A stretch of 64,000 nucleotides of DNA from the NCBI GenBank assembly GCA_030538075.1, contig JAUNUQ010000006.1, positions 22,971 through 86,970 on the forward strand. The letters run 5' to 3'. The translations under genes were made by a program, and so were the position numbers. The notes beneath the pieces are model-generated. The model was not told the origin of the DNA. It saw nothing but the letters and a program-made list of their open reading frames with translations, and searched no databases. The DNA comes from Tissierellia bacterium (GTDB taxonomy: Bacteria; Bacillota; Clostridia; Tissierellales; Peptoniphilaceae). Positions 1 through 64,000 of the stretch are shown piece by piece. Every line of letters starts with the position of its first letter. Position 1 is the stretch's first letter.

Positions 1-1026
1 TAGTCCAATCGCCAATAGCACATGGGATGGATCCAAGGAGCCAGACGTACATGCCGAGCCACTGGAGGCGCAAATGCCCTCCATATCTAACATCAGCAGG
101 AGAGATTCCCCTTCTATATATCGAAAACATAGGTTTACATTATTCGGTAGCCTCCGAATGGGGTCTCCGTTCAAACGGACTTCTTCAATCTCCGTTGTCA
201 ATCTCTCGATGAGATAGTCTCGAAGCGTGGTGAGCTTCGCATTGCGCGCTTCCCGATCATCGGTGGATCGCTCAACGGCTTTTGCCAATCCTACGATCGC
301 TGCGACATTTTCTGTACCTGCCCGGCGTCTGCGTTCTTGCGCACCCCCGTGAATCAGGTTGGGCAGTTTAATCCCGCTGCGTATATAGAGGGCACCAACG
401 CCCTTCATCGCATGGATCTTGTGGCCGGATAGGGACAATAGGTCAATATTCATCTGGTTCACGTCGATGGGCAGAACCCCAAGGGCCTGCACGGCATCCG
501 TATGAAAGAGGACGCCCCTCTCCTTGGCGATGCGGCCAATCTCCTCTATGGGCTGAATGGTGCCGATTTCATTGTTGGCGAACATGATGCTGATCAAGAT
601 CGTCCGATCGGTTATGGCCGATTCCAATGCTTCTAGGGAGATAAATCCGTTCTCGTCCACATCCAGATACGTGACCTCGAATCCATTTTTCTCCAGGTAT
701 TCACAGGTGTGCAGCACAGCATGGTGCTCGATCTTCGAGGTGATGATGTGATTGCCCTTGGCGCCATAGGCCTCCGCAACTCCTTTGATCGCCCAGTTGT
801 CGGCTTCGGAACCTCCAGAGGTGAAAAAGATCTCTTTTCTCTCGGCACCAATGGAATCTGCCACCACTTCTCGGGCATTTTCAATGGCCACCTTGGATTT
901 GCCCCCCAATTGATAAATACTAGACGGATTTCCATATAAATCGGTCAAATAGGGCATCATCGCCTCTAATACTTCCGGGGAAACCCTCGTCGTCGCAGCG
1001 TTGTCTAAATAGATTTGACGGTTCAA
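1..1026 (-). CDS. nifS: cysteine desulfurase (NifS/IscS family), 3' end cut by the window edge
   Basis: Absent from the ORF track because no stop lies inside the window. My translation of the minus strand from TTG(1026) reads [56 protein letters not shown] (PLP-lysine motif)..[20 protein letters not shown] (active-site Cys loop). The TTG start overlaps the upstream Rrf2 stop as TTGA. Confidence 0.85.
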
Positions 1027-1460
1027 GCTCTTGCCTCCTCCTGCTCCATGGTTTCCTTCTCGTCATTGATCATATCTTGTAGCGTATAATTGTCAATAAT
1101 ATCGTTAATGCTATCTCCTATGCGAATCCACAGTCTTCGAGTGACACAGTGATCTTCTCTCTCACAGATGTCCTTTCCCTCCGTGCACTCACAGGGGGAC
1201 ATATGGGTTTCTAATATACGTAAAACCTCTCCTACACAGATCGCCTCTGGCTCTCGGCTGAGTCGGTACCCGCCATAAGCTCCCCGAGAACTCGTCACTA
1301 GGTCGTATTCCCTGAGTTTGCGAATCAGTTGTTCGAGATAACTCTCTGACAAATCCAACTCGCCAGCGATCTCCGATAGGGGAACTGGTTTGGAATTTAA
1401 ATTTTTTGCCAAGTAAAACATAACACGCAGACCATATCTGCCTCGCGTTGATAGTCTCAT
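1023..1460 (-). CDS. Rrf2-family transcriptional regulator (IscR/CymR-like)
   Basis: ORF 1023..1571 trimmed to the ATG at 1460, which is preceded by GGGAGGTGG. The N-terminus [18 protein letters not shown] is typical of Rrf2 winged-helix proteins. It carries a Cys cluster [16 protein letters not shown] and sits directly upstream of the cysteine desulfurase. Confidence 0.85.
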
Positions 1461-1485
1461 CTTCCACCTCCCAATGTACTTTGCC

Positions 1486-1514
1486 ATTATATTATATCCT
1501 ACTATAGCTGTCAA
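1486..1514 (-). promoter_or_regulatory. sigma-A type promoter for the Rrf2-nifS operon
   Basis: Minus strand reads TTGACA (1514..1509), a 17-nt spacer, then TATAAT (1491..1486), about 25 nt upstream of the Rrf2 start. Confidence 0.5.
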
Positions 1515-1676
1515 CATTAAAAGTGGCACAATGGACCACTGCGTAATATTCGATCTACCACGCGAGGCCATGTGCCACCTGATTGAGGTTTCATTTGAAA
1601 TATACCTATTTAGTATATAATATTTCCGTGAAAAAAACTAGTTTATGCGGCCATTTCCATTGAAAAGACCATATCA

Positions 1677-2822: not shown

Positions 2823-3377
2823 ATAAGGCGGTTTTTCCTTGGGTTGGGATAGCTGTTCTTCTGTTTCAAACTCGTATTGTTCGAGAGCTCGTAAACTCCG
2901 CTCGTCGAGCTTCACCAGATTCCGATGGCTGATTCGCTTTAAGTCCTTTGCCATCCGCTTGCCAGAATTCTTCACCGTCTGGACTTGGATTTTCAGTTCA
3001 GCACCAGATAAGCGGACACCACCGCGACCTAGAATGATATTCTGTATCATGGAGTCCGAGGTGGCCACTTTGACGATATCCTTTCGGCCAATCCGATCCA
3101 ATCTGCGTTCGATATAGGTGTCCGCCGTTTCAAATTCTCGAGTATAGACCACTTCGATGCCCTTATAGCGCTCATGCTTACGCACCGAGCCCTTTACCTG
3201 ATGGGCGTCGAAGATCAATACGACGATTTCTCCCGTCAAGGCGGCGTATTCAGCCATTGTTTCCATCAGTCCCAGGCGGGAGGAGTCCAGTCCAGTTGCC
3301 TCAAAGTCCTGGAGTTCCTCCCACTGGTTGATGATATTATAACCATCTACCAGTAGATAGGTCTTTTTCTTACGCAT
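2814..3377 (-). CDS. yacP: NYN-domain ribonuclease YacP/Rae1 family
   Basis: ORF 2814..3395 trimmed to the ATG at 3377. LLVDGYNIINQW...VVLIFDAH...VVYTREFETADTYIE...VATSD matches the YacP-like NYN pattern. The position after rlmB is the conserved Firmicutes order gltX-cysS-rlmB-yacP. Confidence 0.8.
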   Translation of the reverse strand: MRKKKTYLLVDGYNIINQWEELQDFEATGLDSSRLGLMETMAEYAALTGEIVVLIFDAHQVKGSVRKHERYKGIEVVYTREFETADTYIERRLDRIGRKDIVKVATSDSMIQNIILGRGGVRLSGAELKIQVQTVKNSGKRMAKDLKRISHRNLVKLDERSLRALEQYEFETEEQLSQPKEKPPYKK

Positions 3378-51119: not shown

Positions 51120-52115
51120 TTAAACCTGATAGAAACCAACTTTTTTGTATACTTTTCGCAGAGTTTTCATGGCCGCATAGGATGCCCTTTGGGCGTTCTT
51201 CTTACAGACCTCCTCCAGATATCCCTTATCCGAAGAGATCTCCCTATATCTCTCCTGAATCGGACGAAGTCCTTCTGCCACCAACTCTCCCAGCTCTTCC
51301 TTGAATCTGGAGTAGTTTTCGTTCTCATAGCGCTTCACTATCGTTTCAGAAGTCTCTCCGGTGAAGGCGCTGTATATATTAATCAGATTCATCAAGCCGG
51401 CCTGTTCCTCTGAATAGCGGAACTCTCCCATCGAATCCGTCACTGCGCGCTTGATCTTGCGTACGATCGCATCCTTATCATCCAAGAGGAGAATCCTGGC
51501 ATTCTCATCCGGATCCGATTTTGACATCTTCGCCGTTGGATCCTTTAGGCTCATTATTCTCCCACCACTATCGGGAATCAATGGCTCAGGCACTACAAAG
51601 GTGTCGCTGTATTTGTTATTGAAGCGCTCTGCCAGATCTCTGGCCAGCTCTAGATGCTGCTTTTGGTCCGACCCTACGGGTACAAAGTCCGCCTGATAGA
51701 GCAATATATCCGCAGCCATTAGCACAGGATAGGTAAACAGCCCCACATTTTGATTATCCTGATTCTTCGCCAGTTTTTCCTTGTATTGGGTCATTCGAGA
51801 CAATTGTCCCATATAGGTGATCGTGCTGAGCACCCAAGAGAGCTCCGCATGTTGGGGAACATGGGACTGTATAAACAGCACAGATTTCTCCGGGTCAATC
51901 CCCGTGGCAATATATAGCGCCATTAAAGACAAGCTGTTCTTGCGCAGCTGAGCTGGCACCTGATTCACCGTAATCGAATGCATATCCACCACGCAGAAAT
52001 AGCAATCATTCTCCTCTTGTAGACGGGCAAATTACTGAATTGCCCCTAAATAATTCCCTAGGGTCAAATCCCCCGAGGGCTGCACCCCACTAAAAACTGT
52101 CTTCTTCGTCTCCAT
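51120..52115 (-). pseudogene. trpS: tryptophan--tRNA ligase with an in-frame TAA at codon 28 (pseudogene, sequencing error or recoding)
   Basis: The ATG at 52115 (after GGGAGGAAGA) gives METKKTVFSGVQPSGDLTLGNYLGAIQ, then TAA (52034..52032), then in the same frame FARLQEENDCYFCVVDMHSITV, which continues into track ORF 51120..51992. That ORF contains KMSKS (AKMSKSD). A Trp-specific T-box leader lies upstream. Confidence 0.8.
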
Positions 52116-52134: not shown

Positions 52135-52378
52135 ATAAAAAAGCCGTTCACTCCAAGGAGCGAACGGATCAGGTTCACGGTACCATCCTATTTTTTGGCA
52201 AAGCCACTCAATCGGTGCATAACACCTTCGCCCTATAACATGAGCCCACGGCTTTAGCTACTGTCCTTCACCAAAGCATCTCCCGAGTCCATTCCCCGCC
52301 CTCCGCATATCCCCTCTCAGCGACCAGGGACTCTCTGTAAATTGGAGCTTGCAGCTACTACTCTCGTTCTCAGATTCT
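52135..52378 (-). promoter_or_regulatory. T-box riboswitch leader, specifier UGG (Trp)
   Basis: The minus strand shows the AG-bulge/distal-loop elements AGAGAG..CCTGGTCGCTGAGAGG and the specifier-loop candidate GGAA-UGG-A (52291..52289). The conserved T-box sequence AGGATGGTACCGTGAAC is at 52189..52173. The terminator CCGTTCGCTCC-TTGG-AGTGAACGG plus TTTTTT is at 52167..52135. Confidence 0.8.
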
Positions 52379-52384
52379 GAAGAT

Positions 52385-52550: not shown

Positions 52551-53900
52551 CTATCTCAGTTCCCGAAGTTCCTTTTCCACTTCCTCAGAAACGGAATTCT
52601 CCCCTCCGATAATCGTGACGCGATGAATCTCATTTTCCTCAATAAACTCTGCAATTCCAGGCGAGAGTTTGTTCGGTGATGTGAGTAGGATCACGGCATT
52701 TGTATAAGTAGCGCATGGGCCTGCCGCCAGTGCATCAGGATAGCTCGTTCCATCTACTATGATCACTTTTTTGAGATCTATGTCCTTATTCTCTTTCAGT
52801 AGCGCTTTATGGGCATCTGCGACCTTTAGTGCGGTTTCATAGCGATTATCCCCCGCTATTCTCTCTTTTTCACCTTCACCCGGCACAGAGTTCCTACCTC
52901 CGATGACGAGGTCTCTTTCATACAGGAAATCCGTATAGGGAACAAATCGGCCATAGCCTGCACTTTTCTGCAATAAAAACGCATAGGGCGCTGCTGAAAG
53001 GGCATCTGCAAAGTCCGACCCACTGACAAAAATAGATGGCGTATCTCCTAGAACCTTAATCCCTCTGAGAGTAGCGGCCTCCTTGTTGATTCGGGCAGCT
53101 GTCTCAACTCTATTTTCTCCTGCAATACGAGTTACCCCATATCCCAGATCCTCTAATTCTGCTACCACTTTTTCGGAGATGGTATTTTCCCCACCTAGTA
53201 GATAGATCAGTTTTACTCCCAGGGACTTTAGCACATCTGCCATACCAGTTGGCAGATGATCCTTGGATGTCAATAACATCGGTCCACTTACCTCTGATGC
53301 CAAGGGTCCCCCGAAGAGGGCATCTGCAAAATTGTCTCCACTGGCGATGACGGCGATCCCAGCTTGAGAGATCATCTCACTCCCTTGCATTGCAGTCTCA
53401 TATCGATTATCTCCAGAGATCCGAGTTACCTCGTATTTCTCTTTCTGATCAAAATATGCCTGTAGCTCTTCTTCCGTATCAAAGGCGATCAGATCTAAGC
53501 GCGGTTCCACAAAGGGTTGACCATTATATAGTACCACTTTCCAAACCCCTTTTTCGTCTGGAGTCACCTCGAAGAAATATACACCGGGCCGAGCCGCACT
53601 CTCTATCGCGGTAAATTCGGCATAGGATTTATCTTCTCGCTGATACGTAAGCACTGCGTCCTTTGTGATCTGAATCGATCCAGAGTGCACCGTTATGGCG
53701 ATCCCGACCTTGGTCTCACCGGACTGCCCCTTTAACAGTGGTGATTCCCCCACTTGGTCTTGATCCGAAGTCGGTACTGGATCCTCATTCGCTTTTTCCG
53801 TCGATACGACTGCGCTGTTGTTGTCGTCACTGGCTAGAGCTGGAATACTCGTAAATAATAGCGCTACAACCAATAAAGAACTAAAAACTCTTCTGCTCAT
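52551..53900 (-). CDS. secreted cell-wall-binding-repeat-2 (CWB2) surface protein, copy 1
   Basis: 449 aa with a signal peptide (LLVVALLFTSIPALA) and an N-terminal beta-rich domain of about 150 aa. Three CWB2 repeats each begin with ISGDNRYETA / IAGENRVETA / IAGDNRYETA and contain FADAL/YPDAL and LLGG/IIGGENS blocks. Confidence 0.8.
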   Translation of the reverse strand: MSRRVFSSLLVVALLFTSIPALASDDNNSAVVSTEKANEDPVPTSDQDQVGESPLLKGQSGETKVGIAITVHSGSIQITKDAVLTYQREDKSYAEFTAIESAARPGVYFFEVTPDEKGVWKVVLYNGQPFVEPRLDLIAFDTEEELQAYFDQKEKYEVTRISGDNRYETAMQGSEMISQAGIAVIASGDNFADALFGGPLASEVSGPMLLTSKDHLPTGMADVLKSLGVKLIYLLGGENTISEKVVAELEDLGYGVTRIAGENRVETAARINKEAATLRGIKVLGDTPSIFVSGSDFADALSAAPYAFLLQKSAGYGRFVPYTDFLYERDLVIGGRNSVPGEGEKERIAGDNRYETALKVADAHKALLKENKDIDLKKVIIVDGTSYPDALAAGPCATYTNAVILLTSPNKLSPGIAEFIEENEIHRVTIIGGENSVSEEVEKELRELR

Positions 53901-54213: not shown

Positions 54214-54257
54214 GAAAACGCCCTGTCCTCGCCTTTGTAGAGGTTCAGGGCGTTTTC
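54214..54257 (-). terminator. terminator-like hairpin after the flavodoxin gene
   Basis: A 12-bp stem GAAAACGCCCTG / CAGGGCGTTTTC. The U-tract lies partly inside the stem, so efficiency is uncertain. Confidence 0.45.
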
Positions 54258-54341: not shown

Positions 54342-54764
54342 CTAGACTAGAGTCATACCCAGTCTTCTGCACGCAGCCAAGCCGGCTGCATCTGGATATT
54401 CGTTGAGAATTAAGTATTCATGCACCTGCTCTGCCCCAAGGCCCTTGCATCTATCGTCCCAATCTCTCATCCACTGACCGTCTCCCCAGCCATAGGAACC
54501 AAATAGAGCAATTTTTTTACCCTTTAATGCCGATTCACAGGATGCAAACATCGGCTCAAACTCCTCCTCTTCTAGCACCTCTTCACCCATAGAGGAACAG
54601 CCAAATGCCAATATATCATAATCCTCTATCATGCTGGCATAGAAATCCGTGCAATTAAAAAGAGATGCTTCACTACCCGCTTCTTTTGCCCCTTCGAAAA
54701 TTGCCTTTGCCATTTCCTCCGTGTTTCCCGTACCGCTCCAATATACAACTGCCACTCTACTCAT
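54342..54764 (-). CDS. short-chain flavodoxin
   Basis: 140 aa. It has the FMN phosphate loop VVYWSGTGNTEEMA and FGCSSMGEE..FGSYGWGDG. Confidence 0.85.
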   Translation of the reverse strand: MSRVAVVYWSGTGNTEEMAKAIFEGAKEAGSEASLFNCTDFYASMIEDYDILAFGCSSMGEEVLEEEEFEPMFASCESALKGKKIALFGSYGWGDGQWMRDWDDRCKGLGAEQVHEYLILNEYPDAAGLAACRRLGMTLV

Positions 54765-54801
54765 TGCTTTATCTCCTATTCATTCGAATTTTTTCATATT
54801 C

Positions 54802-55371
54802 TCATATGCCAATTGCCAGATAGTCCATATGCATTCCCCAATCCCATAGCATATGATAGATGGCCTTGCATCTCCTATAGTCATCAAATTTCTTAACCGC
54901 ATTCTCTACATCGGAATACACCTTCCAATCCCCTGCCAGTATGAAATTCTTAGCCTTATATTTGATGAACCCATCCACATCTGCTGGAGGGTAGCTGAGA
55001 AATAGTCCAATTTCATGGGGAAATCCATCATTCTCCTTCAGTCTCATAGCCAATTTCTTTACGCATAGGCCTGCATTGCCGCAGTTGTAGCCCCTACTTT
55101 GCATGAGTTCACATGCCAGATCAACTGATAAATCCGCCTCTAAATACTCCGGTCGATATATATATACAAGTGCTTTACAGTCAAAGAATTTTAATGGGAC
55201 AAGCCGCATGCCCTTAGGGACGAGCCTCGTGTTCAAGCAGCGTATTTCCTCCCAGAATTGTCCTAGATCCTCATAGGGCACCGTAGAAATATTTCCCGTT
55301 TTTATTCCGGCCAAGGTCGGAGAACAATGCCTTACAATGAACTCTTCAAGCATGGGATGGAATTTGTACAT
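54802..55371 (-). CDS. DUF3793-like protein
   Basis: 189 aa. HCSPTLAGIKTGN, FPHEIGLFLSYPPADVDGFI and GDWKVY match my memory of the DUF3793 family. Function is unknown. Confidence 0.55.
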   Translation of the reverse strand: MYKFHPMLEEFIVRHCSPTLAGIKTGNISTVPYEDLGQFWEEIRCLNTRLVPKGMRLVPLKFFDCKALVYIYRPEYLEADLSVDLACELMQSRGYNCGNAGLCVKKLAMRLKENDGFPHEIGLFLSYPPADVDGFIKYKAKNFILAGDWKVYSDVENAVKKFDDYRRCKAIYHMLWDWGMHMDYLAIGI

Positions 55372-55646
55372 GTGTTCATGTCCAAGATGTCTCTCAGTGC
55401 ACTCATAGAGCTCGAGTGGGATCTGGCTATTACGGTTTCTTTCCCCTTTATTCTATCCAGAGCCATTTCTAACATCTTATGTGAAGTTGTATTGGTAAAG
55501 ATCACCAATAAGTCCGGGCTGCCAATTCTGTCCTTTAGACCATATTTCATCTTTGTAAACACCTTGACATCATAATTGTACTCTCGACACAGATCTTTAT
55601 ACCTTCTCTCCATTCTCTCATTGCCACCTACGATTACTATCGACAT
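55332..55646 (-). CDS. DUF2325-like protein
   Basis: 104 aa. MSIVIVGGNERM..PDLLVIFTNTTSHKM..SHSSSMSAL matches my memory of DUF2325. Its 3' end overlaps the DUF3793 gene start by 40 nt. Confidence 0.55.
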   Translation of the reverse strand: MSIVIVGGNERMERRYKDLCREYNYDVKVFTKMKYGLKDRIGSPDLLVIFTNTTSHKMLEMALDRIKGKETVIARSHSSSMSALRDILDMNTCTNSIPCLKSSL

Positions 55647-55675
55647 ATTCTCTCCTTTTCTATTTAAATTTTAAA

Positions 55676-55690
55676 TGATATCCATTATCA
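55676..55690. promoter_or_regulatory. Fur-box-like operator upstream of the DUF2325-DUF3793-flavodoxin operon
   Basis: TGATATC-C-ATTATCA compared with the Bacillus-type 7-1-7 consensus TGATAAT-N-ATTATCA. The right half is perfect and the left half matches 5/7. It lies 30-45 nt upstream of the start at 55646. Confidence 0.45.
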
Positions 55691-55704
55691 TTAAGTCAAT
55701 ACTA

Positions 55705-55751
55705 ACAATAAAACGGAGCCCTTTCTACTCCAAAAGATCAGAAAAGGCTCC
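55705..55751 (-). terminator. intrinsic terminator after the P-type ATPase gene
   Basis: Minus strand GGAGCCTTTTC..(loop)..GAAAGGGCTCC (one mismatch) followed by GTTTTATTGTT. Confidence 0.55.
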
Positions 55752-55782
55752 AAAAGGTCACGAACAATTGTGTCAAAAATCA

Positions 55783-57816
55783 TTATTTCAGCTTTGTCAT
55801 ATTCTTTAATCCCAGTCCTATGGTGGACGCATTGTGTAGAAGTGCCAAGGTCGTAGGTGTCAACTGACCTGTGATCCCCAAGCCCAAGAGCATCAGATTA
55901 AAACCCAAGATAAAATCATAGCTATGACGGATTCTCCTCGTCAATAGCTGACTCAGGATCCGCAGCTCCGCCAGACTGTTTAAATCCCTTGTGGAAACGG
56001 TAATATCTGCCACTTCCCTCGCTATGGCGGCTCCTGAGCTGACTGCAATCCCACAGTCCGCAGCAGACAAAGCGGGGGAATCGTTGATACCGTCACCGAT
56101 CATCAACACTCTGTTTCCCAGCTTTTGTTCCTCCATAATATATTTCGCCTTAAACTCCGGCAAAACCTCGGCATAGAATTCATCAATTCCAATTTGTTCT
56201 GCAATATGCGCTGCATTTTTTTTATTGTCCCCTGTCAACATCACAGTTTTTTTGATGCCCAATTCCTTTAGCCTTCGTAATGTATTGGCAGCCTCATCCT
56301 TTAATGGGTCCTCAATGCAGATTACAGCAGAGAGTCGATTTGAAATTGCTAAATATAGCAGGGAATACGCAGATGGAAGGGCGTAAAATTTCTCCTCTTC
56401 CCCTTCCGGAACTGCACATTGTTCATCTTGAAAAACGAAATGATAGCTGCCGATGATCACCTTATCACCCTCTATGGTACTGGCAATCCCGTGGGCTACG
56501 ACATATTCCACCTTCGAGTGTTTTTCCTCATGATGTAGATTTCTATTCTTCGCCTCTTTCACCACGGCATTTGCTACGGAATGTGGATAATGCTCTTCGA
56601 GACAGGCCGCCAACCTGAGCATTTCGTCTTCGTCCCTTCCATTAAAGGTGATGATTTTCTTTACCTTCGGTATGGACTGGGTCAATGTACCCGTCTTATC
56701 AAAGACAATGGTATCCGCCTCCGCTACGATCTCCAAAAACTTTCCACCCTTTACGACCATATCATAGGAGCTGCATTCTCTCATCGAGGATAATACCGCC
56801 AGGGGGATGGAGAGCTTCAGAGCACATGAAAAATCCACCATTAAGACCGAGAGGGCTTTCTCGAAGCTGCGAGTGAGTCCATAGACGAGCGCCGTGCCCA
56901 AAAATGTCATGGGCACCAACTTATCCGCTAAGCCCGCAGCTTTACTCTCGGTTTTTGATTTTAACCTCTCTGATTTTTCTATCATACCGACGATTCGATC
57001 GTATTGTCCTTGTCCAGGGGATTTGTCCACTTGGATCCTACATTCACCATCTTCAACCACTGTTCCTGCGTAGACATAACTGCCAGGAGCTTTTCGAATG
57101 GAATAGGGTTCACCTGTTATCGAAGCTTGGTTGATGCTGGCTTCACCAAAGACCACGACCCCGTCAAAGGGAACGGTGCTGCCCATCCTCACTACGACTT
57201 CGTCCCCTTCCTCCACACAAAATACACTGACGAGCTCTTCCGTTCCGTTTTTATTTATCCATACCTTATCGATTTTTAGTGCAATCGTCTGGGCGAGATC
57301 ATTGACGGATTTTTTATAAGTCCAGTTTTCCAACAGCTCTCCCACATTTAGCAAATAGATGATCGACGCCGAAGTCGCCATATCATTTCTCAAGATAGAA
57401 ATAGAAATCGCCGTAGCATCCAAGACATTCACATCTATTTTCCCTCGAAGCAGGGAAATAACGCCCTTCTTAATGAATTTAATGGATCGGAGGATCGTAA
57501 TCACCATGCCCACTATCGGTGGAAATAGATATTTAGCGCCCAATCTCATCACCGTCATCAGTATCAGCTTGTCTTCGCTATCCCGACTCAGCTCTCTACC
57601 TGTGTTCATAGGGAGTAGATTTACCGTGTTTTTGTCCCGGTAGGAGAAATGAACTAGATATTTTAGTACCTCCGTTCGAGTCGTAGTATAATGAATAATT
57701 GCATTGCCCGTCCTGTCAAAAACCCTTACATTTTTGATTCCCGCTTTATCCTTCAGATAATATTCCAAAAGATGATATGAACTCTCATTCGATTTTTTGA
57801 CTCGTGTAAAATACAA
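55783..57816 (-). CDS. P1B-type (heavy-metal) P-type ATPase with a non-canonical SCA transmembrane motif and a Cys-less HMA-like N-terminus
   Basis: 677 aa with a TTG start. It has TGEP (SITGEPYSI), DKTGTLT and GDGINDSPAL. The TM helix preceding DKTGT reads DFSCALKLSIP where CPC is expected. The N-terminal ferredoxin-like domain has KKSNESSY in place of GMTCxxC. Confidence 0.8.
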   Translation of the reverse strand: MYFTRVKKSNESSYHLLEYYLKDKAGIKNVRVFDRTGNAIIHYTTTRTEVLKYLVHFSYRDKNTVNLLPMNTGRELSRDSEDKLILMTVMRLGAKYLFPPIVGMVITILRSIKFIKKGVISLLRGKIDVNVLDATAISISILRNDMATSASIIYLLNVGELLENWTYKKSVNDLAQTIALKIDKVWINKNGTEELVSVFCVEEGDEVVVRMGSTVPFDGVVVFGEASINQASITGEPYSIRKAPGSYVYAGTVVEDGECRIQVDKSPGQGQYDRIVGMIEKSERLKSKTESKAAGLADKLVPMTFLGTALVYGLTRSFEKALSVLMVDFSCALKLSIPLAVLSSMRECSSYDMVVKGGKFLEIVAEADTIVFDKTGTLTQSIPKVKKIITFNGRDEDEMLRLAACLEEHYPHSVANAVVKEAKNRNLHHEEKHSKVEYVVAHGIASTIEGDKVIIGSYHFVFQDEQCAVPEGEEEKFYALPSAYSLLYLAISNRLSAVICIEDPLKDEAANTLRRLKELGIKKTVMLTGDNKKNAAHIAEQIGIDEFYAEVLPEFKAKYIMEEQKLGNRVLMIGDGINDSPALSAADCGIAVSSGAAIAREVADITVSTRDLNSLAELRILSQLLTRRIRHSYDFILGFNLMLLGLGITGQLTPTTLALLHNASTIGLGLKNMTKLK

Positions 57817-57847
57817 AACCGCATTCTGTCCTCCGTCTTAATGTAAG

Positions 57848-57867
57848 AAGCCGCCTTTAGGCGGCTT
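57848..57867 (-). other. GC-rich stem-loop between the DUF6110 and ATPase genes
   Basis: AAGCCGCC-TTTA-GGCGGCTT, a perfect 8-bp stem with no adjacent U-tract on either strand. It could be a processing or stability element, or a weak attenuator. Confidence 0.35.
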
Positions 57868-57917
57868 ACAGATTCCTCTTATACTGTATTCTCGATTGCC
57901 CGAAGTGGATATCCCTA

Positions 57918-58208
57918 TTATTCGTCTCCCAGATCACAGCCACATGATTGTATTTCTATATCCTCAAACAATTCCGCTTCTTCACTTTCCGCTCTACTCT
58001 CGTTAATATCCTTGGCTTCAGCCATTACATCATCGATGTTCTCCCGTATTTCTGTAACCGCTGTCAGTAGAGATTCCTTAGCTCGTAGAGCCGCCGCAGC
58101 CGTATGTGCATATCTGTTCTTTGCATCCTTGCTTCCGAGTATTTTAAAACCAGCTGATCCCATCAAGATACCGCCAATAAAGATACCCATCCTCTTCATA
58201 CTTATCAT
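57918..58208 (-). CDS. small membrane-anchored protein (DUF6110-like) with C-terminal CGC motif
   Basis: ORF 57918..58223 trimmed to the ATG at 58208 (GGGAGGT plus 6 nt). It has an N-terminal hydrophobic segment GIFIGGILMGSAGFKILGS, a helical acidic region, and ends SCGCDLGDE. The family name is from memory. Confidence 0.5.
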   Translation of the reverse strand: MISMKRMGIFIGGILMGSAGFKILGSKDAKNRYAHTAAAALRAKESLLTAVTEIRENIDDVMAEAKDINESRAESEEAELFEDIEIQSCGCDLGDE

Positions 58209-58253
58209 ATTGAAACCTCCCATTCATTAATTTCTCCTCTTAATGATATCGTT

Positions 58254-59270
58254 TTATTCCATCATTTTCTGCTCCAAAAGGACACTATCTGCCCTGTGGT
58301 TTTTCCGATATTTCATGGGTGTACTTCCCAGCACATCCGAGAAGGCCTTTGCAAATTTACTGCCATTGTCATAGCCTAAGCTCCCAGCGATCTCTAGAAC
58401 AGACAGGCTGCTCTGTCTGAGTAGAGAAGCGGCCATATGCATTTTCTGCGATCGAGTATGGGAATAGATCGTATCTCCATATACTTTTTTAAAACAAGAT
58501 TTTATGTATGTCTCAGAAGTGTCAAATTCTGTTGCAAGCTCTTTAATTGTGACCCTCCGGCTCAGATTATTATTTAGGTAATGACAAAGTCTTCTGGCCA
58601 ATAAAATCTGGGATTTGGGAATGTCCCCCTTAACCAACTGATCTTCCTCAATATTTAGACTATTAAGATACAAGAAGAGTTCAAGGACCTTAATCTTGTA
58701 ATAGCCTTTCAAAATCTCTTTTGGTGCATCAAATAAATCCTGGAATACTCTCTTGATATTCGAGCCGACATTCGTAACAAAACAGCTTCTATCCCCACAG
58801 AACTTCATCGCCAAATTCGTTGGCCGAACATTCACATCCTCCATAAAGCAAGACAAACAACAGGGCACTTTGCCCAGATCTATGACAATCGAAACTCCAT
58901 TGTATTCACTTAACGGAAAATAGGATAGCTTTTCCATCCCTCTTCTCAAACTGATGCTCAGATCTCCCGGCTTTAGATAAAAGAAGCTGTCCACCGTCTC
59001 ACATTCAAATCTACCTTCTTTACAAAAATTGATTTCCAGGATTTCACTACTGCATTTACAGTCAAAACTGCACTCCCTATTTTCTACATTATTAAACAAT
59101 AGGTGGATCCCTTCAAAGACTTGATAACCGGTGAAGCTCGACTTTCCATTTACACCACTAAGTCCAAAATTCGCAGTTTCACCATCTCTTACGATCAGAT
59201 TTCCCTGACAACCATTGATACAATATTTTGGGGACCGTTCTTCCAATATCATCACCACCCAACACAGCAT
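58254..59270 (-). CDS. AraC-family transcriptional regulator
   Basis: 338 aa with a C-terminal double HTH (VTIKELATEFDTSETYIKSCFKKVYG..LSVLEIAGSLGYDNGSKFAKAFSDVLGSTPMKYR) and an N-terminal Cys-rich sensor-like domain. The start may be the ATG at 59252. Confidence 0.8.
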   Translation of the reverse strand: MLCWVVMILEERSPKYCINGCQGNLIVRDGETANFGLSGVNGKSSFTGYQVFEGIHLLFNNVENRECSFDCKCSSEILEINFCKEGRFECETVDSFFYLKPGDLSISLRRGMEKLSYFPLSEYNGVSIVIDLGKVPCCLSCFMEDVNVRPTNLAMKFCGDRSCFVTNVGSNIKRVFQDLFDAPKEILKGYYKIKVLELFLYLNSLNIEEDQLVKGDIPKSQILLARRLCHYLNNNLSRRVTIKELATEFDTSETYIKSCFKKVYGDTIYSHTRSQKMHMAASLLRQSSLSVLEIAGSLGYDNGSKFAKAFSDVLGSTPMKYRKNHRADSVLLEQKMME

Positions 59271-59317
59271 AGTTATGCATGACTAACTAAAGGATAGCGT
59301 ATATTCTAAAATGTGTC

Positions 59318-59336
59318 AATGATAATTGTTATCATT
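59318..59336. promoter_or_regulatory. Fur-box candidate (perfect 8-3-8 palindrome) upstream of the AraC gene
   Basis: AATGATAA-TTG-TTATCATT. The core TGATAAT-T-GTTATCA (59320..59334) matches 13 of 14 specified positions of TGATAAT-N-ATTATCA. It lies about 50-65 nt upstream of the AraC start. Confidence 0.55.
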
Positions 59337-59454: not shown

Positions 59455-60792
59455 TTATCTCAGTCCCTTCAACTCCTCCTCTACTGCTTTCGACACCGAA
59501 TTCTCCCCTCCGATGATCGTCACGCTTTCGATATCATTCTCCTTGATAAATTCGGCGATGCTCGGCGAGAGTTGATCTGGTGCAGTCAATAGGATCGCTC
59601 CATAGTTATTCGTTGCAAGGGGTCCTGCAGCCAATGCATCCGGATAATTCGTCCCATCCACCAGAATAACCCTACGAAGGTCCAGGCCTTTCCTTTCTTT
59701 GAGCAATACACGGAAAGCCTTGGCGACTTCCAGCGCAGTTTCGAATCGGTTCTCCCCTGCAATCCTCTTCATCTCCCCTTCGCTGGGAACGGAACTCTCT
59801 CCGCCGATCACGATATCTTGCAGAGTATTGTAACCACTATAGGGAATAAATCTACCATAGCGCTCGATTGTCTGAAGCAGATAGGCATAGGGCGCAGCGG
59901 ACAAGGCATCCGCAAAATCAAATCCGTTCACGAGGACGGAAGGGATATCCCCAAGGATCTTTACGCCCTTTAGAGATCCCGTCGTACTACTGATAAGCGC
60001 AGCCGTCTCTATGCGATCCTTTCCGGCGATCCGGTTGACTCCGTAGCCCAGACTCCTCAGTTCCGATTCCACTTCGGCGGAAATAGAGTTCTCTCCACCC
60101 AATAGATATACAAAACGGACCCCAATGTCCTTTAATGCTTCAACCATCCCAGTAGGCAGCTTGTCTTTATGGGTCAGTAGCATCGGTGCGCTGACTTGAG
60201 ATGCCAAAGGACCTCCAAAGAGGGCATCGGCAAAGTTTTCACCACTGGCGATAACTGCAATTTCCGATCGGTAAACCCCTTTACTCACTTCGAAGGCTGT
60301 TTGATATCGATCCTCCCCGAAGATACGCTGCACTTGGTATCTGTCTCTTTGTGCAAGATAAGTATCTGCATCTAGTACAGTCAGCTTCATGAGCGGCTCC
60401 TCAATCGGCTCACCATTATAGAGCACCATCTGCCATTCCCCAGTCTGGTCTGGCGTTACGGTGAAGGAGTAAACCCCAGAAAACACATCACTTTCTACCG
60501 CAGTGAATGCAACCCGGGTTTTGTCATCTCTCTCATATGTTAATACTGCATCCTTTGTAATCACCGTGGTCCCTGAGTTTATCTTAAAGGGTACCCCCAG
60601 TTTTACCTCGCCAAATTGTCCAAGGAAACGCGGATGGTCAACCCAGACCGTTGACTCCGATCCCTCTTCACTGAACGCATCCACCTTTTCATTGGGCGTC
60701 ATTGCCGCTCTATCTGCCGCGCTCGCCAATATCGGTGTGCTCATTAGCAAAATCGCCAGCACCAATAACCAGCTAAGTACTCTTTTTTTCAT
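59455..60792 (-). CDS. secreted CWB2 surface protein, copy 2 (paralogue of 52551..53900)
   Basis: 445 aa with a signal peptide (LLVLAILLMSTPILASA) and the same architecture and collinear blocks as copy 1 (VITKDAVLTYERDDK, VTPDQTGEWQMVLYNG, IFGEDRYQTA, IAGKDRIETA, IAGENRFETA, VTIIGGENSVS). Confidence 0.8.
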   Translation of the reverse strand: MKKRVLSWLLVLAILLMSTPILASAADRAAMTPNEKVDAFSEEGSESTVWVDHPRFLGQFGEVKLGVPFKINSGTTVITKDAVLTYERDDKTRVAFTAVESDVFSGVYSFTVTPDQTGEWQMVLYNGEPIEEPLMKLTVLDADTYLAQRDRYQVQRIFGEDRYQTAFEVSKGVYRSEIAVIASGENFADALFGGPLASQVSAPMLLTHKDKLPTGMVEALKDIGVRFVYLLGGENSISAEVESELRSLGYGVNRIAGKDRIETAALISSTTGSLKGVKILGDIPSVLVNGFDFADALSAAPYAYLLQTIERYGRFIPYSGYNTLQDIVIGGESSVPSEGEMKRIAGENRFETALEVAKAFRVLLKERKGLDLRRVILVDGTNYPDALAAGPLATNNYGAILLTAPDQLSPSIAEFIKENDIESVTIIGGENSVSKAVEEELKGLR

Positions 60793-61576: not shown

Positions 61577-63696
61577 TTATTGGACGAAATGATTGCCTCT
61601 AAGCCAATTATAAACGGCTTCATTTGCGTTCTCATTTACATAATAAAACCGTTTAGGTTCCATTATCGAACGATCTGAACTTTTGATAATTTTTCCGGTT
61701 TTATCAATTAAAAACACCTCACTATCAGCTCCGTTGAATTTTGTACCTAAATATAGTCCACTTCCTACTCCATCAAATGCGTCATATACTCCTAACTCTT
61801 GAACACGGTTTCCTTCTTTGTCAATCAAATAATACTCTTTACGATCTTCACTCACCGGCGCAACGCCATGATTAAAAGCATCGGCATAGGCAAGCGATTT
61901 TGGGAGAATATCCTTTCCACTCGTGTCGTAAAACTTAATCTCACCATTCGCATAAACCATGATGATGTTTTCGCTCCAATAAACACGTCCCAATGATCCG
62001 TTGATTTGAAGAGAAGAAGCTATAGTGGTTAAAGTTTTTCCTTCATTGTCCAAAATGGCACATCCAGAAGTAGACATATCATCATCAGTCTCGTTAAAAA
62101 CACCACCAAATCTGTCTTTTTCTAGGGGGTAAAGATTAATATAACGATCACTAACAGAAAACAATTCATTTCCATTGACGTCAATTACCCGTTTGACATC
62201 ACTTTGTATTTCTCCTCCAAGAAAGTAATCTTTCCCAATTCGACGACTCCGGTCAGCATCTCCAATATAGGTGAGTGTATTTTCATCTTTGTTATAGATA
62301 TTAGCAGTCCCATTGTGCTTTACAAAAGCAACTCCATTCCAGAACTCCCCTGCATTGTCAAAAGTTAATGGGATAGCAACTCGTCCCGTACTATCAATAT
62401 AGCCTTCCTTACCTTGCTTATCGCGTACAGGGGCTAGTCCTTCAGAGAAAAAACCAACATGCTGGTAATCGTTTTCAAGTTTTGCTAATTTATTACCACT
62501 AATATCCAGAATACTCCATTTTCCTTGATCATCTTGGGCAGCAACCTTCCCTTCAGAGGGCCAACTCACAAAACGATACTTGGGTTCAATCAAAATATTT
62601 CCTTTACTATCCATCAACCCTACCCTAGATCCTTTGTCATACCTAGAATAAAAAGTAGAAGCAATGATAGGAGCATCATTTTCTTGGTCAGAGGATTCCC
62701 CTTTGTTTTCCATAAGTTCCTTCAGAGATTGCTCCACCTGTGCTGATATTGAATTAACGCCTCCTAGAATATAGATTTTTTGAAGGTTTTCGCGGTTTTC
62801 TTTGATGTACTTTTCTACAGAATTTGGAATACTGTTTTTTTGTATGAGAAGAATTGGTGCCGATTCTTTACCTGCCAAGGCAGATCCAGCCAATGCGTCA
62901 GGATAACCTTCACCTGCAGCTAAAATAATTGTTGAAGGATTGTGAAAGTTTTCAGCAATTTTCATGCTTGTATCATAACGAGTATCACCGAAATAACGCT
63001 TTAAATTTTTGTCAAATTCTCTGTAGAGATTTGACGTTTCTTGATCAAAGGCAAGCTCTCCTCCAAAGAGGGTGAGTTGAGGTGCTTCAATGCTCTCTAA
63101 ATAGTCTTTTGTCAAAGTCGGTATACCAGCATTATTTCCTAAGAGAATGACTCCTTTGTTTTCTAATGCTAGGGCCGAACCTGAAAGGGCATCTGGAAAA
63201 TTTAACCACTTGCAACATAGATTTGATTTGTCCTGATCTCCTTTGCGATTAATGCAGCTGTTTCATAACGGTTTTGACCAGAAATACGTTTGTAGAGAAT
63301 GCCTTCGTTTTGAAGTTCTGTTGTAACCTCAGAAGAAATGGTCAGTTCTCCTCCCAAAATAGTGACTTTAGGTTTAGAAAGATTTCTAAGTTTTGTAAGC
63401 GCTTGCGAATCTAGTGAATTTTTGCTCGTGAGTAGAATAGGAATTCTCCCTTTTGAAAGAGGAGCGCCTGCTAAGGCGTCGGGGTAATTCTCTCCGCTCA
63501 CCAACAAAAATTCCGTACTATCAGGGTTAACTTCTTCAGCTATTTTCAGTGCAGTTTCATATCGGTTCCCTCCAGAAATTCTCTGAATGCTTATTTCTTC
63601 AGCACTGACAGTAGATGAAAAGAGAGTGATGAACATACAGGATGTCAATAATAGCAATACTCTCTTTTTAAAGCTTATTGATGCTTTCGTTCTCAT
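61577..63696 (-). pseudogene. CWB2 + WG-repeat surface protein gene interrupted by a 1-nt frameshift near 63200
   Basis: Track ORFs 63202..63891 and 61577..63115 are two pieces of one gene. The first has a signal peptide from the ATG at 63696 and CWB2 repeats ISGGNRYETA and ISGQNRYETA. The second has a third CWB2 repeat FGDTRYDTS and then repeated WG/KWG-like units such as GKWSILDISGNKL, GKEGYIDSTGRVAIPL, YYLIDKEGNRV and FLIDKTGKII. After ..IYVASG-TAA, the -1 frame continues LNFPDALSGSALALENKGVILLGNNAGIPTLTKDYLESIEAPQLTLFGGE. Confidence 0.75.
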
Positions 63697-63799
63697 GAAC
63701 ATTCTCCTTTCTACATTATCAATTAATACTATGTGTTTTTTTCGTTCATCTAGATTATGTTGTAGATGAAATAATATTAATACAACAATATGTTTTTTT

Positions 63800-63825
63800 A
63801 TTACTATATCATATGATATAGTAAT
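63800..63825. repeat. perfect 26-bp AT-rich palindrome upstream of the CWB2-WG gene
   Basis: ATTACTATATCAT|ATGATATAGTAAT, verified base by base. It lies about 105-130 nt upstream of the start at 63696. Confidence 0.7.
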
Positions 63826-63826
63826 C

Positions 63827-63850
63827 GTCAATTGTAGGGTTGCAATTGAC
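63827..63850. repeat. second inverted repeat adjacent to the palindrome
   Basis: GTCAATTG-TAGGGTTG-CAATTGAC, with 8-bp arms. Confidence 0.6.
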
Positions 63851-64000
63851 ATGATACCGATAGACATAAATGCGAGTATTATCCAATACAACTGAATAAT
63901 CCCAACATCTTGTAAATTTCATCCAGTATTCTAACTGCACAGGTATAACTTCGATTAAATGGTTTCTACTTGTCGTCCTGAAAGAATTGGTTAAAAAAAT

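Follow-up and report, generated by a model that had tools for sequence, protein, structure and literature searches.

A predicted ferrosome gene pair joined to a flavodoxin operon under putative Fur-type iron control in a Tissierellia bacterium

Gene content of the block

We analyzed a 64,000-nucleotide stretch of the genome of a Tissierellia bacterium (contig JAUNUQ010000006.1 of GenBank assembly GCA_030538075.1; hereafter the window), in which positions 54342-59336 hold a block of six genes that encode an AraC-family regulator, a putative ferrosome (fez) pair and the products of a flavodoxin operon. All six genes are located on the minus strand, and Pfam assignment returned the same families that an earlier note, made from the sequence alone, had read there. 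In the direction of transcription, these are the gene for an AraC/XylS-family regulator (58254-59270; Pfam HTH_18), a fezA-like gene for a DUF6110 protein, also described as PacL-like (57918-58223; 104 bits in Pfam), fezB, encoding a P1B-6 ATPase that was identified by Pfam, TIGR01525 and sequence motifs (listed open reading frame (ORF) 55783-57816, or 55783-57824 when counted from an ATG), the DUF2325 gene (55332-55646; Pfam), the DUF3793 gene (54802-55371; Pfam), which overlaps the DUF2325 gene by 40 nucleotides (nt), and the gene for a short-chain flavodoxin (54342-54764; Pfam and TIGR01753).

The DUF6110 protein and the P1B-6 ATPase as a predicted ferrosome pair

The ATPase contains the E1-E2_ATPase and Hydrolase domains of Pfam and passes the heavy-metal model TIGR01525 (469 bits against a cut-off of 346). 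The SCA metal site to which the earlier note had drawn attention is present as DFSCALK (residue 328) in transmembrane segment 4 (TM4), and the protein further carries DKTGT (residue 373) and, in its last transmembrane helix, HNAST (residue 661). Subgroup P1B-6 has been equated with FezB and defined by D[Y/F]SCA, HNxxT and an N-terminal R-rich motif (Grant et al.); together with small GxxxG membrane proteins, FezB makes ferrosomes, which are membrane-bound stores of iron phosphate (Grant et al.). The supplementary table of the same study lists DFSCALK, HNAST and HEIRGRIRFDLQ for FezB of C. difficile, and DFSCALK, HNAST and HESKGRLRVHLF for FezB of E. siraeum. The corresponding R-rich (RxR) stretch of the gene studied here, HESKNRMRVH, which takes the place of a CxxC metal site, is found in the intact fezB allele of a sister assembly and is cut off from the remaining ORF in the window by a 31-nt deletion that is discussed below. 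NCBIfam holds no FezA- or FezB-specific model, and a sequence search of the PDB with FezB returned no solved P1B-6 structure, P1B-4, ZntA and CopA all scoring at about 217-220 bits.

The fezA-like gene lies directly upstream of the ATPase gene, and its likely true start is at 58208, which gives a protein of 96 amino acids (aa). This protein has an N-terminal hydrophobic GxxxG segment, IFIGGILMGSAGFK, that parallels the published motifs of the group 2-2 GxxxG proteins of C. difficile (BG47_10395, IFLGGVLFGTVGVK) and E. siraeum (EUS_25580, 95 aa, IFAGGVAFGSVGLK) (Grant et al.), and its identity to the DUF6110 cluster of E. siraeum is 58%. Its acidic tail ends in SCGCDLGDE, as the earlier note had seen. 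The Cys-rich part of this tail, QSCGCDLGDE (57918-57950), resembles the C-terminal metal-binding motif of mycobacterial PacL proteins, and few homologues share it, namely those of two related loci (SCCCC in L008 and CAETCGETVC in L017); a C-terminal Cys motif was accordingly rejected as a hallmark of DUF6110. The pairing of DUF6110 with P1B-6 pumps has been noted independently in work on mycobacterial PacL.

Judged by these motifs, the DUF6110 protein and the P1B-6 ATPase are a FezA/FezB ferrosome pair, that is, an already described module. In C. difficile, FezA and FezB are needed for ferrosomes and are repressed by Fur, and FezB loads Fe(II) that is kept as an iron phosphate mineral, according to later papers. 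The earlier note had regarded the pump as a P1B-6 ATPase of unknown substrate within an uncharacterised module. The subgroup stands on the motifs and the unknown substrate does not, given that FezB pumps iron in ferrosomes according to the literature; nor can the pump and its partner be called uncharacterised, because the FezB motifs, the GxxxG/DUF6110 match and the published ferrosome function, along with the published DUF6110/P1B-6 pairing, identify them.

A 31-nucleotide deletion in fezB

The listed ORF of the ATPase starts with TTG. An ATG with a GGAGG ribosome-binding site is located 8 bases upstream, at 57824, in another frame, which reads MRFCILHESKNRMRVHII and runs into a stop after 23 codons. 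The Logan contig L037, which comes from the same organism and is 100% identical on both sides, contains 31 extra nt after window position 57773 (L037:6962-6992) and encodes an intact FezB of 690 aa with the N-terminus MRFCILHESKNRMRVHIKQNRMTLYQADLLEYYL. The deletion thus takes out the codons for KQNRMTLYQAD and shifts the frame; the stretch AGCAAAATCGAATGACATTATATCAAGCGGA marks the intact allele around 57740-57830. The N-terminal pattern MKCxILHESxGRxRxH...RMT..QAD.LEYYL is present in all of about 30 homologues. Given that L037 is intact and that every homologue has the full N-terminus, the window allele of fezB is either a frameshift variant or an assembly error, and the pump may be inactive here or the assembly may be wrong at the deletion. 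Split fezB genes are also found in other assemblies (L038, L029, L030 and L035), frameshifts being common in the assembled copies of this gene.

Fur-type operators at two predicted promoters

The 64-kb window was scanned with the Bacillus 7-1-7 Fur consensus TGATAATNATTATCA, allowing at most 2 mismatches, at which threshold 0.42 matches are expected. The only matches were the two operators on which the earlier note had based its proposal of Fur-type iron control: operator 1, with the core TGATAATTGTTATCA (59320-59334; 1 mismatch), and operator 2, with the core TGATATCCATTATCA (55676-55690; 2 mismatches). Operator 1 forms a perfect 8-3-8 palindrome, AATGATAA-N3-TTATCATT (59318-59336), and the reported coordinates, palindrome and distances of the operators to the start codons (50 and 30 nt) were all borne out. 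For operator 2, in which only a perfect right half had been seen, the agreement is in fact stronger, with a perfect 7-5-7 repeat, AATGATA/TATCATT, over 55674-55692. Both operators agree with AATGATA-N5-TATCATT at every position, and no other exact match occurs in the window; a similar site with 1 mismatch at 3033-3051 is located inside a YacP/NYN housekeeping gene and was taken as a chance occurrence. Each operator further matches 14 of the 15 positions of the C. difficile Fur consensus TGATAATVAWHWTCA (PMC6311696).

Operator 1 adjoins the predicted sigma-70 promoter of the AraC gene (59291-59319, minus strand; TTGACA-17 nt-TATCCT, 10 of 12 matches) and overlaps its -35 hexamer by 2 nt. No promoter-like sequence in the intergenic DNA scores higher on the gene strand; over the region, a site inside the ATPase gene ties with it. 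Operator 2 is located 6-8 nt downstream of the predicted -10 element of the DUF2325 operon. In five strains that are 1-1.5% diverged, the 136-nt intergenic region between fezB and DUF2325 contains 0 single-nucleotide polymorphisms (SNPs), compared with about 20 in the spacer between the flavodoxin gene and the adjacent gene for a CWB2 cell-wall-binding protein, which weakly supports constraint on the former. Bacillus-type Fur boxes of any relevance were not found in 36 homologous loci (described below), so that no support can be drawn from operator conservation. Overall, Fur-type iron control of the block is supported in silico by the placement of the operators at promoters, by the match to the C. 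difficile consensus and by the links of the related loci to feoAB and DtxR-like genes. In C. difficile, low iron and mutation of fur both induce CD630_05910 (annotated as 'ATPase') and its neighbor, the hypothetical gene CD630_05920, which has a Fur box; these genes look like, and may be, the fez pair.

The AraC-family regulator and a candidate activator box

The C-terminal part of the regulator is a helix-turn-helix region with matches to HTH_18 (63.9 bits) and HTH_AraC (43.6 bits) in Pfam; the N-terminal portion of about 220 aa has no Pfam match, and the start codon is ambiguous (59270 or 59246). Cysteines of the N-terminal domain (C83, C90, C138, C141, C158 and C163) fall into the motifs HCxEGRxEC, CLSC and FCxxxxC, which are kept in 9-12 of the 12 full-length orthologues. 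Because these cysteines are conserved, a metal or redox input is hinted at, and the Cys-rich domain probably supplies a second signal, be it metal, iron-sulfur (Fe-S) cluster or redox state.

A recurrent motif, TGGAGYRGAR, mostly preceded by TGTC-N4, is the candidate activator box. Over the related loci, it occurs 40 times on the gene strand and 9 times on the other strand, with about 4 occurrences expected per strand. Of these copies, 26 are located at most 300 nt upstream of DUF6110 or DUF2325/DUF3793 genes, and TAnnnT follows exactly 18 nt downstream in 21 of the 26. On the minus strand of the window, there are exactly two copies of TGGAGYRGAR, at 58267-58276 and 55723-55732, and each is part of a predicted activator-type promoter on that strand. 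The promoter of fezA-fezB (58243-58284), which is situated in the 3' end of the AraC gene, consists of the box TGTCCTTTTGGAGCAGAA (58284-58267), an 18-nt spacer and the -10 element TATCAT (58248-58243); that of the DUF2325 operon (55699-55740) consists of the box TGATCTTTTGGAGTAGAA (55740-55723), again 18 nt, and the -10 element TAGTAT (55704-55699).

The box is present upstream of DUF6110 in 15 of the 18 loci with an adjacent AraC gene, versus 2 of the 13 loci without one (Fisher p = 2.6e-4, with no correction for phylogeny), and it is absent from stand-alone flavodoxin modules. We infer that the box is the binding site of the AraC-family regulator, at the position of the -35 element. The co-occurrence of the box with an adjacent gene for a Cys-rich AraC-family protein suggests a relay from Fur to the AraC-family regulator and from the latter to its targets.

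Related loci and a candidate alternative operator

The comparison covered 36 loci from species-representative genomes, in which FezB is 52-62% identical to the window protein. A DUF6110 gene followed by fezB is found in nearly all of them, an AraC-family gene is located upstream in about 20, and DUF2325, DUF3793 and/or flavodoxin genes are located downstream in about 12. The nearest relative with wider synteny, L039, has the order AraC-DUF6110-fezB-DUF3793-flavodoxin, followed by the HTH-cupin/potABCD genes that are found at 45-50 kb in the window. In L051, a DUF2325-DUF3793-(flavodoxin) module without fezB directly follows dtxR-feoA-feoA-feoB.

The 490 kb of related loci contain about 70 palindromes of the form GTTAG-N6-CTAAC, with fewer than 1 expected. 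These sites are located 30-115 nt upstream of the AraC gene, DUF2325, DUF3793, feoA and a gene for an HMA-domain protein (for example, at L039:5728 and 9454, and at L051:2408, 2516 and 5961); in L039, they occupy both positions that are held by the Fur-type sites in the window. No GTTAG-N6/N8-CTAAC site was found in the window. Several loci have a gene for a small DtxR-like regulator between feoB and the AraC gene, immediately before the latter, and the canonical DtxR gene of L051 has GTTAG-N6-CTAAC palindromes on its flanks. In gut Clostridia, the palindrome probably serves a DtxR-type iron repressor as its operator. Because the promoters of the relatives carry this operator, with DtxR-like genes and feoAB nearby, they lend independent comparative support to iron control: the iron-linked wiring appears to be conserved, and the operator, and presumably the repressor, differ between the window species and its relatives. 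The same replacement bears on the possibility, raised in the earlier note, that the window palindromes are the sites of the AraC protein itself. The AraC orthologues of the relatives keep the asymmetric box, and the palindrome is replaced at the same positions, so this assignment was ruled out.

In 22 of 39 related loci, a micro-ORF encoding a single helix of 26 aa, MKKHKxFAWLTVxxFLLTxxTGY[EK][KR]K, is located between the activator-box promoter and DUF6110 (for example, L039:6909-6986, L007:1883-1960 and L016:7389-7466). It is absent from the window and may represent an extra, unannotated membrane component of clostridial fez clusters.

The flavodoxin operon and transcript ends

The flavodoxin passes the flav_short model TIGR01753 (140.7 bits against a cut-off of 123). 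The structural model of the DUF2325 protein is a small four-strand alpha/beta fold of the Rossmann/CheY-like type with an invariant C20, and a fold search with it gave only generic Rossmann/CheY-like matches. The model of the DUF3793 protein is confident (pLDDT 92.7); its search against the PDB yielded no meaningful match (best E = 0.04, TM 0.28), and the conserved motifs of the family are CSPTLAGxKTGN and FPHEIGxFLGYP. NCBIfam contains nothing for DUF2325 or DUF3793. The Campylobacter homologue of DUF2325 (cj1384c of C. jejuni) is regulated by PerR and strongly induced by reactive oxygen species (ROS). The DUF2325 and DUF3793 genes constantly accompany flavodoxin and iron-repressor operators, and the DUF2325-DUF3793-flavodoxin operon is, as its distribution indicates, a separate module predicted to serve iron limitation that is also present without fezB.

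A terminator hairpin follows fezB (55715-55751, minus strand; free energy -22.9 kcal/mol, z -3.9) and is itself followed by GUUUUAUUGUU; its 3' arm contains the second activator box. After the flavodoxin gene, there is a terminator-like hairpin (54214-54257, minus strand) with a 12-bp perfect stem and a weak U tract (-26.6 kcal/mol, z -4.4). Between fezA and fezB, a 7-bp GC-rich hairpin, AAGCCGCC-UAAA-GGCGGCUU (57846-57868, minus strand), may reduce transcription into fezB; compared with shuffled sequences, it falls short of significance (z = -1.7), and it is not conserved, the two genes overlapping in L039.

Comparison with known systems

The ferrosome genes fezA and fezB of C. difficile were reportedly described by Pi and colleagues in 2023. 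This pair (CDR20291_1517 and CDR20291_1516) resembles that of the window in having the gene for a small GxxxG protein ahead of one for a P1B-6 ATPase that carries DFSCALK and HNAST (and, in the intact allele of the gene studied here, the R-rich N-terminus), and both hosts are Gram-positive anaerobes. The C. difficile genes are Fur-repressed and induced by iron limitation, whereas Fur control in the window is predicted. The Fur-type sites of the window are located at the upstream AraC gene and the downstream flavodoxin operon rather than directly at fezA, which, unlike its C. difficile counterpart, has a predicted activator-type promoter; moreover, FezA comprises 96-101 aa in the window and 131 aa in C. 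difficile.

The fez clusters of D. magneticus, S. putrefaciens and R. palustris share with the window the FezB motifs, the adjacent GxxxG protein and anaerobic hosts (Grant et al.). They consist of 3 to 6 or more genes, including FezC with an HMA domain, DUF4405, a FeoA-domain protein and a ferritin-like protein, whereas the clostridial form is a minimal two-gene core to which many relatives, but not the window, add the 26-aa micro-ORF. AraC, Fur, DtxR and FeoB genes are frequent neighbors of fez clusters (Grant et al.).

The short-chain flavodoxin behind a Fur-type operator has parallels in the Fur-regulated fldX genes of C. acetobutylicum and C. difficile, flavodoxin being the classical substitute for ferredoxin. 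In C. difficile, this gene is monocistronic and located elsewhere in the genome, whereas the window flavodoxin gene belongs to the cluster and, unlike fldX, is the third gene of the conserved DUF2325-DUF3793-flavodoxin operon, which in other Clostridia is also found by itself beside dtxR-feoAAB.

PacL1-CtpC of M. tuberculosis also resembles the window pair: the gene for a P1B ATPase whose TM6 has an HN motif is directly preceded by one for a single-pass membrane protein, the cytoplasmic portion of which is helical, rich in Ala and Glu and ends in a C-terminal tail, and DUF6110 has been reported as related to DUF1490. CtpC, however, carries CPC in TM4 and serves to export Zn when metal is in excess, whereas the window pump has SCA in TM4 and is predicted to be controlled by iron scarcity. 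A PacL/CtpC platform is defined by a DUF1490 protein with a C-terminal His/Asp metal motif and by a P1B6-like pump of the CPC type; the window protein has a Pfam match to DUF6110 only, its tail SCGCDLGDE is unconserved and TM4 of the pump reads SCA.

Proposed circuit and alternative explanations

We propose, with a probability of about three in four, that the block is, in an uncultured member of the Clostridia, a ferrosome cluster joined to an iron-sparing flavodoxin operon in a two-level circuit of Fur-type iron repression. Under this scenario, FezA, with its single-pass GxxxG segment, and the P1B-6 pump FezB would build membrane-enclosed vesicles, and FezB would load these with Fe(II) for storage as iron phosphate. 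When iron is sufficient, iron-loaded Fur would occupy AATGATA-N5-TATCATT at the -35 element of the AraC gene and just downstream of the -10 element of the DUF2325 operon. When iron is scarce, Fur would be released and the AraC-family protein made; bound to the TGTC-N4-TGGAGYRGAR boxes in the -35 position, it would switch on fezA-fezB and the flavodoxin operon by class-II-type activation. Given that the promoter of the flavodoxin operon carries both operator 2 and the box, direct de-repression from Fur and the activator would both be needed there. Flavodoxin would then substitute for ferredoxin when iron is short, with DUF2325 and DUF3793 as putative accessory proteins.

Several observations weigh against this proposal. 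The window contains no fur gene (searched for by the signature HxHxxCxxC), the Fur-type operator is confined to this species among 59 loci, and operator 1 is located upstream of the predicted -35 and -10 elements instead of spanning them. The fezB gene is frameshifted in the window. The Fisher test on the co-occurrence of the box and the AraC gene lacks a phylogenetic correction, and two loci have the box but no AraC gene beside it. In metagenomes, a scan for the combination of activator box, 18 nt, -10 element and Fur box returned 8 matches, all attributable to chance, in AT-rich DNA without fez or flavodoxin-operon genes. Finally, Fur binding, the function of the activator box and the formation of ferrosomes in this organism are all predictions from sequence.

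The frameshift could mean that the cluster is decaying in the window strain, in which case fezB would be a pseudogene and the regulatory signals of the pump relics, and the flavodoxin operon may still work. The early stop in the ATG frame and the loss of an N-terminus that all of the roughly 30 homologues keep are compatible with decay, but the sister assembly, identical on both sides, is intact, so the deletion may be an error of assembly or consensus, or else a rare variant; the remaining ORF stays open over 677 codons with all catalytic motifs, and the split fezB genes in the L038, L029 and L030 assemblies suggest errors as well. We regard decay as possible but doubtful.

The identity of the repressor leaves room for another reading, in which a PerR-like Fur paralogue or an unrelated repressor binds the palindromes and the block is a redox-stress module rather than one for iron starvation. 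In C. difficile, O2 and superoxide induce fldX about 250-340-fold, and iron loss is an inducer as well; the C. jejuni DUF2325 gene cj1384c belongs to the PerR regulon with massive ROS induction, and the window lacks a fur gene. In B. subtilis, Fur boxes are told from PerR (TTATAA) and Zur (TCGTAA) boxes by the 7-1-7 core, which has G at its second and C at its fourteenth position. Both window operators have this G and C (TGATAA...TTATCA), both match 14 of 15 positions of the C. difficile Fur consensus, and the replacement operator of the relatives is also located upstream of feoA; we consider this reading improbable. We consider it very improbable that the DUF6110/ATPase pair is a PacL-like efflux platform that expels a toxic metal (Zn, Mn, Co or Fe) through the cell membrane instead of filling an organelle. 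DUF6110 has been described as PacL-like and typically encoded with P1B-6 pumps, one UniRef name of the E. siraeum homologue is 'DUF1490 domain-containing', the Cys/Asp/Glu tail SCGCDLGDE is a potential metal-binding site comparable to that at the C-terminus of PacL, and ferrosomes in this organism are predicted from its genes. Against these points stand the SCA of TM4, where CtpC has CPC, the restriction of the Cys tail to the window, L008 and L017, and the predicted iron-repressor control and the feoAB/flavodoxin linkage in relatives, which fit iron scarcity and not metal excess; moreover, C. difficile FezB, on which ferrosomes depend, carries these same motifs.

Within the proposed ferrosome-flavodoxin circuit, a more specific and speculative extension, which we regard as unlikely, is that the Cys-rich AraC regulator acts as a dedicated metal/redox gate below the iron repressor (Fur here, DtxR-type in relatives), co-activating fezAB and the flavodoxin operon through the shared box, with DUF2325, DUF3793 and flavodoxin as partners of the ferrosome, for example, in the supply or handling of electrons for loading or release of Fe(II). 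If true, the locus would be a clear example of one repressor exchanged for another while the promoter positions stay fixed.

Genomic setting

The guanine plus cytosine (GC) content of 54342-59336 is 42.8%, compared with 48.6 +/- 0.9% in non-overlapping 5-kb windows, in agreement with the low GC that the earlier note had estimated by eye. The block is flanked by co-oriented CWB2 paralogues (52551-53900 and 59455-60792) that are 56% identical. The term 'island' used in the earlier note is favored by the lower GC and by the position between paralogous CWB2 genes, but L039 keeps the cluster beside the same HTH-cupin/potABCD neighbors, which argues against a very recent insertion, so the status of the block as an island is uncertain. 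The CWB2 surface-protein genes form a run around the block, with others at 61577-63115 and 63202-63891, and the GC content at the right end of the window (61-64 kb) is 36-38%. No Rfam match was found inside the block. Elsewhere, a T-box leader (52153-52380, minus strand; 101 bits) is located upstream of a gene for a class-I tRNA synthetase of the Trp/Tyr type (51120-51992), and a gene for an Rrf2-family regulator (1023-1571, minus strand; 131 bits) is located at the far end of the window.

Implications

The ferrosome fezAB cluster under iron repression is already known; the activator box with its putative AraC relay, the apparent replacement of Fur by DtxR-type operators, and the predicted link to the DUF2325-DUF3793-flavodoxin module are new as far as we could find. 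Ferrosomes are a recently recognised bacterial organelle. For the study of their regulation, loading and emptying, this locus, together with about 40 relatives, supplies testable elements, namely a candidate activator box associated with an AraC gene and two alternative iron-repressor operators that occupy equivalent promoter positions. For annotation, pairs of DUF6110 proteins and P1B-6 ATPases would be better named FezA/FezB-like than 'unknown heavy-metal pump', and the recurrent association of such pairs with the three genes of the flavodoxin module could help in the design of experiments on gut Clostridia.

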